NCBI GenBank assembly: GCA_013285585.1
Contig: JABDHH010000003.1
Span: 8,786 to 72,785, forward strand
Source: Chlamydiota bacterium
GTDB taxonomy: Bacteria > Chlamydiota > Chlamydiia > Chlamydiales > SM23-39
Direction: 5' to 3'
DNA: 64,000 nt
The notes beneath the pieces were generated by a model. That model did not search any database, was not told where the DNA came from, and saw only the letters and a program-made list of their open reading frames with translations. Positions within the stretch are counted from its first letter, which is position 1; each line of letters starts with the position of its first letter. Made by a program: the position numbers and the translations under genes. Positions 6,168 to 62,448 of this stretch are shown piece by piece.

Positions 6168-6963
6168 ATGCCATCTCCAGATATTCCATATCCTCTTGAA
6201 AAAGTGACAAAAGCTGTCCTCTTTCTCAAAAACTTCATCACTAATCCTAACATTCAAGTAGGCGATTATACCAAATATCAGAAATAACGTTAAGTTTGGC
6301 AAGGAAGCTGCACAAATTTTTTGTCTGGAACGAGTGACCATTGCCAGCATGGCAAGGCACGAGTGAAGACGAAAAATTTGTTGCAGAGCTGACGTAGCCA
6401 AACCCAACGTTATTTCTGATATTTGGTATTATACCTACTACGATGGAAGGGATCATGGAGAAAAATTTGAGACTGAAAACGTGATCTTTGCCAGATCTTG
6501 TCGACTGATTATCGGTAAATTTTGCCAGATTGCCTATGGAACCAAATTTCTTTTGAGCGATGCAAATCATCAAATGAGCGGCTTCTCCACATTTCCGTTC
6601 TTCATTTTTGGCAACATGGCTGAAGGATGTCTCTCATGGGCTGACTACAAACTTGATCTGCCTAATAAAGGAGATACGATTATTGGAAATGATGTCTGGT
6701 TTGGACATGAGGCAATGATCATGCAAGGAGTAAAAATTGGCGATGGAGCAATCATTGCAGCAAGAAGCGTTGTGGTAAAAGATGTCCCTCCCTACACGAT
6801 CGTAGGAGGCAACCCTGCTAAAACCATCCGCAAGCGGTTCTCTGATGAAATCATAGAACAGCTGATCAAAATTGAATGGTGGAATTGGGATTATGAAAAA
6901 ATCACTCGCAATATCCCGGCTATTGTTGGCGCGGACATTGAAATGCTTCTGAGGGCTAAATGA
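6168..6963 (+). pseudogene. Vat/CatB-like xenobiotic O-acetyltransferase interrupted by MITE-A
   Basis: Removing 163 bp (element plus one TSD) restores a 210-aa ORF: MPSPDIPYP..NPNIQVGDYTYYD..IGKFCQIA..IGNDVWFG..VGGNPAK.IRKRF..WWNW. Confidence 0.9.
6269..6428 (-). mobile_element. MITE family A, copy 1 (160 bp, TSD TTA)
   Basis: TIR taccaaatatcagaaataacgtt...aacgttatttctgatatttggta; TTA at 6266-68 and 6429-31. Confidence 0.95.
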
Positions 6964-7412
6964 TGCGTAATGCTCATCTTCAACCGCGGCTCGTGTCTTC
7001 AGAAAAGGAGAAAAAGGAGGCACTTGATTTCAGGCAGAAGCACTTCTTTGATCGATTGGGGTTTCAAGACCCATACCGTTGGACTTTAGATGAGAAAGCT
7101 CAGCTTCATTGGCTTTTATATGAGGGGGATAGAGTTGTTGGTTACGCTCATGTGCAAATTTGGCCAGACGATAGGGCTGCACTGCGGATTATAGTGATTG
7201 ATGAACAAATGAGGGGCCAGGGAAAGGGAAAATATCTGATGGATTATTGTGAACGGGAGCTGAAAGAGCAAGGGGTAAAACTTCTCCAAACAGAAGCCTC
7301 TCCCAATGCCTACCCTTTCTACAAGAAGCTTGGATATATAGAGATGCCATTCAACAATCCAGAAGGAGAGCCCACCCATCCAAATGATCGAGCAATGGGA
7401 AAATACTTATAA
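6960..7412 (+). CDS. GNAT family N-acetyltransferase
   Basis: LRIIVIDEQMRGQGKG and FYKKLGY motifs. Confidence 0.88.
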   Translation: MMRNAHLQPRLVSSEKEKKEALDFRQKHFFDRLGFQDPYRWTLDEKAQLHWLLYEGDRVVGYAHVQIWPDDRAALRIIVIDEQMRGQGKGKYLMDYCERELKEQGVKLLQTEASPNAYPFYKKLGYIEMPFNNPEGEPTHPNDRAMGKYL

Positions 7413-7593
7413 AAATCGCCTTTCTTTTTTATGAGGGTATGACTGCCCTAGATGCAATAGGACCGCACGAAATATTGAAACGTGATCTCCTCATAAAAAA
7501 TTCGCCAATCTGATTTGAGAAAATCCAAAAACTCACAGACGATTTCCATTTCAAAACTTTCCGAGGATAGAATTTTTTTCTATGAAGAGATAA

Positions 7594-7753
7594 TACCAAA
7601 TATCAGAAATAACGTTGGGTTTGGCTACGTCAGCTCTGCAACAAATTTTTCGTCTTCACTCGTGCCTTGCCATGCTGGCAATGGTCACTCGTTCCAGACA
7701 AAAAATTTGTGCAGCTTCCTTGCCAAACCCAACGTTATTTCTGATATTTGGTA
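7594..7753 (+). mobile_element. MITE family A, copy 2 (TSD TAA, intergenic)
   Basis: Same 160-bp element in opposite orientation; TAA at 7591-93 and 7754-56. Confidence 0.95.
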
Positions 7754-7780
7754 TAACATGTTCGTCCAGACGGAAGCGAC

Positions 7781-60292: not shown

Positions 60293-60602
60293 TGCCACTT
60301 TGGACAGATTTCTTCTCGATAAAACGATCATTTTCTTCCATTAACTCTTTCATCAAGCGAACTGCCTGAAACTTCCCAAGTCGATCCCAATCTCCATTTT
60401 GAGGAAAAACAGTAGCCTCAAGCAGTCTAGGGGAGCGGATTTTTTGGGCCAGGACATCGGCCGCTGCGTTGCTGTCGTCCATATTTCTGTTCAATAGTTC
60501 AATTGAATCAGAATTGCAATAATAATCTTGATTATTTGTAAATATTTTAGTTTGTTAATTTGTTTTTGTTATTTACGTTAATTATTCGATTATTTAGTAT
60601 TT

Positions 60603-61904
60603 GTGGATAAAAAGGATGGTTATATGGTTGCGGCAGTTTCTTCTTCTAATTATCATTTGGCCTCGATTCAGATAAAAGACAGAGCTGCGCCTCAGCGCTC
60701 TAACATTTTCACCGTGAAAAATGCCGCAATGGCCGTTGGAGGCATATTGCTTTTCTCCGGAGTTGCAGCGGGAACCGGCAGATTATTGCAGATGGGCGGC
60801 GCGCAGCTTTTGTCTCATCCTTCGGCATTAAGCGGGATAGGACGGGCTGCAATGGTTGCCGGAGATAAGCTATTTCTCGTAGGAAAAGGAGCTTTTTTAT
60901 CTGTGGCGGTTCCTGTCTACACGATTACATGGATCGTTCCTAAATGGATCGCAACTGTGGGGATTCCGAAGGGAGCGGCGCTAGCTCATCGATATGTACT
61001 GATTCCCATTGGCGAGGGAATCGTCAAGATTTCCGCTTTCTTGAACGACTCTCTGGCAAAAACAGCCCAGGCCATCTATCGCCATGTTCTCCAACCGTTT
61101 GGCCGAGTCATTAACGTAACGGCGAAGTGGGTCTGGAAGACCGTCATTGTTCCAGCAACCGATAAAATAGCCCAATTCGGTATCGATATTTACCATCAAG
61201 TCTTGGCACCGCTTGGCAAGACCTTGGCGACTGCTTCTAAGTGGATCTGGAATTCTGCGATCGTTCCGGGCGTTGATCTATTCGTAAAAGGCGTGCGAGC
61301 GGTATTTGACCGGATTGTGCAGCCATTAAGCCAGTTTATGGCAAACGCCGCGAAGTGGATCTGGAACTCTGCGATCGTTCCGGGTGCCGATCTATTTGCA
61401 AAAGGCGTGCGAGCGGTATTTGACCGGGTTGTGCAGCCATTAGGGCAGTTAACGGCAAATGCAGCGAAGTGGATCTGGAACTCTGCGATCGTTCCGGGTG
61501 CCGATCTATTTGCAAAAGGTGTGCGAGCGGTATTTGACCGGGTTGTGCAGCCGTTAGGGCAATTAACGGCAAATGCAGCGAAGTGGATCTGGAACTCTGC
61601 GATCGTTCCGGGTGTCGATCTATTTGCAAAAGGCGTGCAAGCGGTATTTGACCGGATTGTGCAGCCATTAGGGCAATTAACGGCAAAAGCAGCGAAATGG
61701 ATTTGGGAAGCCGCGTTAGTGCCTGTAGCCAAGAATATCGCGCAAGCAACGCATGCACTCAAAATTCTTGTGGAAAAGGTCTTGACTGCAGCTAATCAGA
61801 CTTTGATTGTGCCTGCCGCCAAGGTTGTTGGCCAAGCTTCCTCCGAGATAGCTGATGCGATCCGGAATGCAACGAGTGCTCTGTCTCAAAAATTCTTCCG
61901 ATAA
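60603..61904 (+). CDS. hypothetical protein with 38-aa amphipathic Trp-containing tandem repeats
   Basis: 433-aa ORF; hydrophobic N-terminal segments; repeat AKWIWNSAIVPGADLFAKGVRAVFDRVVQPLGQLTANA. Confidence 0.82.
   Translation: MDKKDGYMVAAVSSSNYHLASIQIKDRAAPQRSNIFTVKNAAMAVGGILLFSGVAAGTGRLLQMGGAQLLSHPSALSGIGRAAMVAGDKLFLVGKGAFLSVAVPVYTITWIVPKWIATVGIPKGAALAHRYVLIPIGEGIVKISAFLNDSLAKTAQAIYRHVLQPFGRVINVTAKWVWKTVIVPATDKIAQFGIDIYHQVLAPLGKTLATASKWIWNSAIVPGVDLFVKGVRAVFDRIVQPLSQFMANAAKWIWNSAIVPGADLFAKGVRAVFDRVVQPLGQLTANAAKWIWNSAIVPGADLFAKGVRAVFDRVVQPLGQLTANAAKWIWNSAIVPGVDLFAKGVQAVFDRIVQPLGQLTAKAAKWIWEAALVPVAKNIAQATHALKILVEKVLTAANQTLIVPAAKVVGQASSEIADAIRNATSALSQKFFR
61125..61720 (+). repeat. 114-bp intragenic tandem repeat, about 5 units
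   Basis: aa(g/a)tgg(a/g)t(c/t)tgg at 61125, 61239, 61353, 61467, 61581 and 61695 (period 114). Confidence 0.95.
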
Positions 61905-62125
61905 TTTCGGAGTCAAAGCGCGGATCATCGACGAACACAATTTTTGATTCGTATTGCATGAATACAGATCAACTTGGCGTGAGCCTGCGGTCGATTTGCG
62001 TTATTTTCTACAGGGAGACCAACTATTTCTTTCCGTATTTCCCCTGCCAGTACATCGCTTCAGGAGTAGCCTTATCCGAAGCTCTTCAGACAGAAAGACT
62101 TTTCACAGGCAAGAACCCTTCGTAA

Positions 62126-62448
62126 GGGACTGTTAATACCAAATATCAGAAATAACGTTGGGTTTGGCTACGTCAGCTCTGCAACAAATTTTTCGTCTTC
62201 ACTCGTGCCTTGCCATGCTGGCAATGGTCACTCGTTCCAGACAAAAAATTTGTGCAGCTTCCTTGCCAAACCCAACGTTATTTCTGATATTTGGTATAAA
62301 CAAGTAAACTATTTCACCGCGCCAAATCAACCGAAAATCGACGATCAGAAATGAGGTAGTATTCATGCGATACAACCCCATTTCTGATCGTCGATTTTAG
62401 GTTGATTTCGCGCAGGTCAAATGATTTACTTTATTGTTTAACAGTCCC
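62126..62448. mobile_element. MITE family C (160 bp once MITE-A is removed; TSD TAA)
   Basis: TIR gggactgttaaacaa / ttgtttaacagtccc; long internal palindrome aaaatcgacgatcagaaatg / catttctgatcgtcgatttt; TAA at 62123-25 and 62449-51. Confidence 0.88.
62137..62296 (+). mobile_element. MITE family A, copy 6 (TSD TAA), nested in family C
   Basis: 160 bp; TAA at 62134-36 and 62297-99. Confidence 0.95.

Follow-up and report, generated by a model that had tools for sequence, protein, structure and literature searches.

A recent burst of palindromic MITEs in a chlamydial genome, probably moved by an IS630-family transposase that duplicates TNA

The window analysed here is a 64,000-nucleotide stretch of a Chlamydiota bacterium genome (assembly GCA_013285585.1, contig JABDHH010000003.1, labelled C3, positions 8786-72785), and its subject is a family of short palindromic repeats, called family A below. 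The source genome (G000) is 1.143 Mb long and consists of 48 contigs, none of them shorter than 2.5 kb; it is rated 62.9% complete. A Pfam scan of 66 open reading frames (ORFs) reveals a chlamydia-like gene set in the window, with the type III secretion genes sctJ/L/R/S/T and with aro, pyr and suf genes. None of these ORFs belongs to a transposase family, as an earlier note on this DNA, made from the letters alone, had also reported. The secretion genes, together with the presence of the same element ends in public metagenome-assembled genomes (MAGs) of Chlamydiae, Parachlamydiales and Simkaniaceae, bear out the chlamydial origin proposed there.

Repeat finding and a six-way alignment locate six copies of a 160-bp element in the window. 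Copies 1 (6269-6428) and 3 (23624-23783) are on the plus strand, and copies 2 (7594-7753), 4 (33633-33792), 5 (50636-50795) and 6 (62137-62296) are on the minus strand. Their sequences vary at about six columns only, and the similarity among them ends exactly at TACC...GGTA. Each copy is flanked by a 3-bp duplication of the type TNA (N, any base): TTA for copy 1 (6266-6268 and 6429-6431) and copy 4, TAA for copies 2, 3 and 6, and TGA for copy 5. Positions, orientations and duplications thus agree with the first description of these repeats. The whole element folds into one long hairpin (-84.5 kcal/mol, z = -13.9), and none of 200 shuffled sequences is as stable, in line with the fully palindromic structure first described. 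The conserved core of the hairpin comprises 108 nt (nt 27-134 of the element) and is found at 6295-6402 on the plus strand in copy 1. Family A is short and non-coding, has terminal inverted repeats (TIRs) and a duplication of fixed length, and occurs in many copies at unrelated sites. These are the features of a miniature inverted-repeat transposable element (MITE).

Two of the insertions split genes whose products can be recognized. Copy 1 interrupts a plus-strand gene for a Vat/XAT-like hexapeptide acetyltransferase, leaving the N-terminal 33 codons with the ATG at 6168-6268 and the C-terminal part at 6432-6963. The product of the latter can be aligned with virginiamycin A acetyltransferases of solved structure over their residues 36-206 (E 3.5e-51). 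Copy 5 divides an ankyrin-repeat gene on the minus strand into an upstream half (50799-51392) and a downstream half (49580-50635), both of which match ankyrin repeats. When the element and one triplet (163 bp) are disregarded, a continuous Vat-like frame of 210 aa appears at 6269 and one of 550 aa at 50636; therefore, the closing of the frames supports a duplication of 3 bp and not of 2 bp. Copy 3 lies within an open frame of 135 aa without a Pfam match, so a third disrupted gene is unproven. Hence, of the three broken accessory genes counted in the earlier note, those at 6269 and 50636 stand and the one at 23624 is uncertain.

The other three copies are intergenic. Copies 2 and 6 are each placed between convergent genes: copy 2 has the 3' ends of a GNAT gene and an alpha/beta-hydrolase gene on its two sides, copy 6 a 433-aa ORF and the gene of a PHO4 phosphate transporter. 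On the minus strand, the right triplet of copy 4 (33793-33795) serves sctT (Bac_export_1) as its TAA stop codon. Directly abutting this copy is a 13-nt remnant of a family-A right end with its TTA (33617-33632, plus strand), which suggests that elements inserted here more than once or that one was partly deleted. Stop-codon targeting as a general rule is rejected, as a stop codon is the target in only 2 of 36 copies genome-wide. Only 6 of these 36 are inside a frame that reaches 150 aa and has 25 aa or more to either side, and the claim that the family is pruning the accessory genome is thus overstated. Separately, we note that the region 4991-7409 around copy 1 contains a cluster of genes for small-molecule modification: a chloramphenicol-phosphotransferase-like protein fused to a GNAT domain, the split Vat-like acetyltransferase and another GNAT protein.

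The count of 36 comes from a BLAST search of the source genome, where the full copies are spread over 21 contigs. In addition, one copy is truncated because another repeat is nested in it, and there are about six fragments; two of these are found at contig ends, with contigs C6 and C9 terminating inside copies. Fifteen of the 36 full copies are identical, 17 distinct sequences are present, and pairs of copies have a median identity of 98.1%. In 22 copies the 32-bp TIR is without mismatch. Identical TNA triplets flank 33 copies (TAA 17, TTA 12, TCA 3, TGA 1), and in the remaining three the flanking triplets differ at one base. The near-identity of many copies and their intact triplets fit a recent burst of family A. 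Thus, family A is a real, recently amplified non-autonomous TIR element, and the full set of copies confirms this part of the original description together with its 3-bp TNA duplications.

The source genome is a fragmented MAG in which two contigs end inside copies, and one could suppose that the repeat was misplaced in contigs during assembly. We give this explanation almost no weight: 36 copies have unique flanks and matching triplets, and public contigs from two studies carry the junctions of copy 5, the one locus laid on public runs. Contigs of a public run (Logan) reach 26 and 29 nt into this copy, one from each flank, and a 151-nt contig from a second study contains the left junction (45 nt of flank and 106 nt of element) with 0 differences. 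Both junctions are therefore bridged by independent contigs and the element is no assembly artefact. The summed depth, about 82,000-92,000 over the element interior compared with 540-760 in the flanks, cannot be read as a copy number. In runs X2 and X4 only gene parts of a relative are found, and the site is not reached. At copy 4, no element lies between aroB and sctT in the relatives G002 and G004, where the spacer is too divergent for a clean empty-site alignment.

Which transposase moves family A? A 3-bp TNA or TWA (W, A or T) duplication is the classic mark of the IS5 and PIF-Harbinger groups, and from this the earlier note had derived such a relationship. Family A would then be an IS5-family (IS1031-like) or PIF/Harbinger-type MITE, moved by a transposase of the DDE_Tnp_1 or DDE_Tnp_4 type. 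The duplication itself fits, and profile searches for transposase families in 61 genomes find DDE_Tnp_1 genes in 32 and DDE_Tnp_4 genes in 4 of them. An abundant insertion sequence (IS) of the genome G046 with GAGCC ends adjoins TAA, and in the source genome a degenerate DDE_Tnp_1 remnant lies about 500 bp from one copy. However, none of the 32 DDE_Tnp_1 or DDE_Tnp_4 loci fetched from relatives has MITE-like ends, and the remnant in the source genome is not bounded by MITE ends either. The only autonomous elements found with matching ends encode transposases of the IS630 family (DDE_3, NF033545). We regard an IS5 or Harbinger origin as very improbable. Two candidates were rejected in this search: the abundant IS of G046 because of its GAGCC ends, and the TACC-type end pairs of loci L127 and L131, whose sequences are unrelated to the ends of family A. 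As a side observation, locus L040 (G000:C11:36575-36778) is a C-terminal DDE_Tnp_1 remnant with stops, next to a duplicated gene end.

A candidate IS630-type partner was found by a DDE_3 search of 61 genomes. Locus L181 is a contig of G003, a genome of the same genus as the source (as is G004); an IS of 1137 bp makes up the whole contig and has a perfect 28/28 TIR that begins TACCATTTATCAAAAATAAC. An A8 run marks the overlap of its orfA (171 aa) and orfB (183 aa), whose products match DDE_3 (PF13358) and HTH_33 (PF13592). In the IS630 model NF033545, orfA covers positions 4-134 with 90.5 bits and orfB positions 140-299 with 149.4 bits. The score of orfA is below the 100-bit whole-protein cut-off, as is expected, because orfA is one half of a split gene. 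The ends of L181 agree with the variant family-A copies of the source genome (C11:28732 and C16:6138) at 29/31 and 28/31 positions, and with the main subfamily at 23/31 only. The IS end closest to the main subfamily begins TACCAAATGCG.

With orfB of L181 as query, relatives at E <= 1e-40 are found in 23 of 401 genomes of the order and not in the source genome; 29 loci from these genomes and 80 loci from metagenomes were examined. The closest transposases carry only the generic source name 'transposase'. Full-length ISs of the L181 clade (n=72) are 1130-1176 bp long, and their TIRs match at 20-28 of 26-28 positions. A run of at least six A is present at the orfA/orfB junction in 69 of these 72 ISs, and a single long ORF in 2. 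A TIR scan of the genome collection yields 50 loci; those in chlamydial MAGs are MITEs or solo ends, and the single TIR matches in other phyla look like chance. The solo ends in G030, G014 and G001 lie at host genes or belong to shorter MITE variants, without a transposase. In the plasmid collection there is no blastn match.

The clade has the same footprint as the MITEs. The full IS is present with both ends at 12 of the 29 genome loci, and identical TWA triplets (TAA or TTA) flank 10 of these 12. In the metagenomes, 59 of the 80 loci have both ends and 56 have both flanks. TNA stands on both sides in 53 of the 56, and the triplets are identical in 31 (TAA 19, TTA 11, TGA 1). Among the TNA-type MITE copies of relatives, identical triplets are found in 10 of the 12 with both flanks. 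In its transposase type with helix-turn-helix (HTH) domain, in its length (about 1-1.4 kb in this family) and in its TIRs the partner IS conforms to the IS630 family, and in the duplication of TA it does not.

We conclude that family A is very probably a gene-less MITE moved in trans by the transposase of an IS630-family clade, with duplication of TNA. The clade would consist of an IS of about 1.14 kb that is common in environmental chlamydiae and has ends beginning with TACCA. Its transposase is predicted to join the HTH domains of orfA to the DDE_3 domain of orfB via a shift at the A-run. Insertion would duplicate a TNA triplet, mostly TAA or TTA, instead of the TA usual for the family, and a cut-and-paste mechanism with a 3-nt staggered cut of the target may produce this footprint. 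A close relative of L181, unassembled in the source genome, could have driven the burst of the main subfamily. The mechanism put forward in the earlier note, that of a non-autonomous TIR element, was thus right in kind, but its superfamily is not supported.

Several observations weigh against this assignment to IS630. An IS630-type transposase gene is not found in the assembled source genome at its 62.9% completeness, nor are two TIRs spaced as in an IS; this assembly has no contig below 2.5 kb, so that a 1.1-kb contig into which the IS had collapsed would be missing from it. A transposase-bearing IS with the exact ends of the main subfamily (TACCAAATATCAG...), which the earlier note had proposed to look for, was not found in the source genome, five relatives, the genome collection or the 80 metagenome loci, and the partner in hand, L181, is that of the variant subfamily. 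Among the 56 metagenome ISs with both flanks, 25 have unequal triplets, namely 22 with TNA on both sides and another middle base and 3 that do not fit; on metagenome contigs of at least 2.5 kb the triplets are identical at 5 of 9 loci only. The likely cause of the unequal triplets is chimeric short contigs or recombination, and chimeric flanks are likely because many of the metagenome contigs are barely longer than the IS. The TNA habit also departs from the norm of the family, since PMC8533490 gives TA as the duplication of the IS630/Tc1/mariner group and Sailor (TATA) as an exception. One IS630 member is tabulated with a 2-bp (TA) duplication in PMC6007542, and PMC3196728 does not mention IS630. 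By title or start of abstract, nothing was found in the literature on IS630 elements with TNA, TWA or 3-bp duplications, nor on MITEs in Chlamydiae. As regards ongoing movement, no joint that skips copy 5, the one locus laid on reads, is seen in the public run contigs, and without such an empty-site allele present-day activity is not demonstrated. The description of the family as 'active' is supported for its recent amplification and not for the present day.

The interior of family A has a distribution of its own. A DNA search of 60 relatives finds related copies in 13, which speaks against specificity to one lineage, and the match is often restricted to the interior. The source genome itself contains sister families, whose elements measure about 160 bp, have ends of the type TACCG or TACCC and are flanked by TA in 8 of 9 cases. 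They have the interior (nt 27-134) in common with family A and differ from it in the subterminal ends. The ends of these sister families resemble those of a TA-flanked 1117-bp IS630 element of G004, found by an inverted-repeat scan of the G004 loci. It has TACCG/TACCC ends, and its 352-aa product matches DDE_3 and HTH_33 and scores 217.9 bits with NF033545. Around the same interior, a fourth end type is present in G001. The interior is thus associated with at least four end types, TA- and TNA-duplicating, and the two matched transposase lineages (TA and TNA) are only about 30% identical over 61 aa. It is not contained in any full-length IS among 186 IS loci.

Two side observations concern these ends. 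G004 also has a classic 1194-bp IS630-type element in CTAG with TA duplication (L182, L186), and TA-type and TNA-type IS630 elements hence coexist in the genus. In contigs of one public MAG (L059-L105), a 26-32-nt family-A end with TNA flanks occurs with different interiors or alone, so the family-A end module is also mobile independently of the hairpin core.

Between genomes that belong to different families, conservation of the core (nt 27-134) is about 80%, while the ends differ. In an alignment of 38 elements from the source genome and nine other genomes the consensus hairpin has 40 pairs, of which 26 show compensatory double changes. Paired cells make up 94.3% of the alignment, compared with 30-42% when the partners are slid, and 0 of 500 shuffles reach any of five measures. 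Both arms of the core carry the motif ACGAGT; the two motifs pair with each other and enclose a tandem G-A/A-G mismatch, which is kept in nearly all of the 38 sequences. A covariance model of the core finds matches in 37 of 151 genomes sampled from the phylum. In the 27 genomes of one family (f35), which are small (1.0-1.2 Mb), it finds none. The interior is not IS-derived, its pairing is kept by compensatory changes, and it recurs in MITEs whose IS630-type ends differ from those of family A. We therefore take it for a conserved cargo or scaffold, which may work as a fold-back that helps transposition or as an RNA hairpin.

One may go further and take the hairpin core, as a structured RNA or a DNA fold-back, for the selected unit, to which IS630-type ends are attached interchangeably. 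This is compatible with movement by the IS630-family transposase. Candidate roles, for the cell or for the element, are processing, termination or stabilisation of transcripts, or some role independent of the transposase. The conserved interior between varying ends, the strong covariation with the kept ACGAGT/tandem G-A motif, the variety of end types with distantly related transposases, the absence of the core from full-length ISs and its spread over the sampled phylum all point in this direction. However, the elements show no orientation bias relative to the flanking genes: they have the same sense in 17 of 38 copies downstream of a gene and in 6 of 20 upstream. The Rfam search suggested in the earlier note gives no family in the window at gathering thresholds, and the best sub-threshold match has 32.4 bits where 100 are required. 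The excess of G-U over A-C cells in the hairpin alignment (65 to 34) depends mainly on two columns. Covariation can also be explained by a need for fold-back during transposition, or by repair within the palindrome. We therefore hold the core as the selected unit to be possible but doubtful. Equally tentative is the broader proposal that the 108-nt hairpin is a functional module which is refitted with resident IS630-type ends across chlamydial families and that, separately, the TACCA-ended IS630 clade has changed its stagger from 2 to 3 nt.

Other repeats are present beside family A. A second MITE superfamily with the ends GAGSCARTTGCAAAACTC and a length of 166 or 180 bp is found in the window at 38256-38435 and 41989-42169 and elsewhere in the source genome, for example at C4:50272, C14:23846 and C38:946. 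It has at least 36 paired copies there; most pairs, read by eye, have varied 4-bp duplications, and some of these elements lie within a family-A copy or directly beside one. A third repeat, also dispersed, is intergenic (2831-2994, 42188-42273, 58283-58491); it measures about 86-114 bp, and its identity is 63-93%. Two ORFs without a clear Pfam family contain internal repeats: the 433-aa ORF at 60603-61904 has 114-bp tandem repeats (61112-61795, five overlapping register copies), and the 472-aa ORF at 40466-41884 has repeats of 132-141 bp (40585-41041). Between convergent genes, 23 bp from copy 6, a 44-nt inverted repeat with 91% complementarity and a 7-nt loop (62319-62413) looks like a terminator.

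For chlamydial genomics, family A and its relatives form a widespread superfamily of repeats at which MAG assemblies break and by which genes are occasionally disrupted. The related TA and TNA transposase lineages form a natural pair for studying the target stagger in Tc1/mariner-like enzymes. The covarying interior poses a testable question, namely whether the hairpin aids the transposition of very short elements or acts on transcripts. A further consequence is that a transposon can be assigned to the wrong superfamily when its target-site footprint is the sole guide, as with the TWA footprint and IS630-type partner described here.

Among known systems, the RUP elements of Streptococcus pneumoniae are non-coding and about 107 nt long, have TIRs, and occur in many copies, often intergenic. 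They duplicate TA, and an IS630-family transposase (that of IS630-Spn1) is presumed to act on them in trans. Family A is similar as a short, non-coding, multicopy TIR element with a proposed IS630-family partner in trans. However, unlike RUP, it duplicates TNA, has a 108-nt covarying core in common with elements that have other ends, and resides in a chlamydia-like host. In eukaryotes, Stowaway MITEs pair with Tc1/mariner and Tourist MITEs with PIF/Harbinger transposases. The logic of a MITE and its partner is the same for family A, whose footprint (TWA) is Tourist-like and whose partner superfamily (IS630/Tc1/mariner) is Stowaway-like; it differs in its bacterial host and in that footprint and partner are cross-matched with respect to the eukaryotic rule, and for this reason the assignment by target-site duplication was misled. 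In the IS1031 group of the IS5 family the 3-bp TNA duplication goes together with a DDE_Tnp_1 transposase and GAG... ends; family A has the duplication in common with this group and differs from it in the transposase type and the ends. The Correia elements of Neisseria, the ERIC elements of enterobacteria and the Rickettsia palindromic elements are hairpin repeats of about 100-160 bp in small genomes, some of them in genes. Family A resembles them in form, as a palindromic hairpin repeat, and it has a plausible transposase partner. Finally, Sailor, as described in PMC8533490, is similar to the IS clade of family A in that the duplicated target can change within IS630/Tc1/mariner. In Sailor, the duplication is 4 bp (TATA) and the transposase has a long DD82E spacer, whereas the clade described here duplicates 3 bp (TNA) with an ordinary short orfAB transposase.

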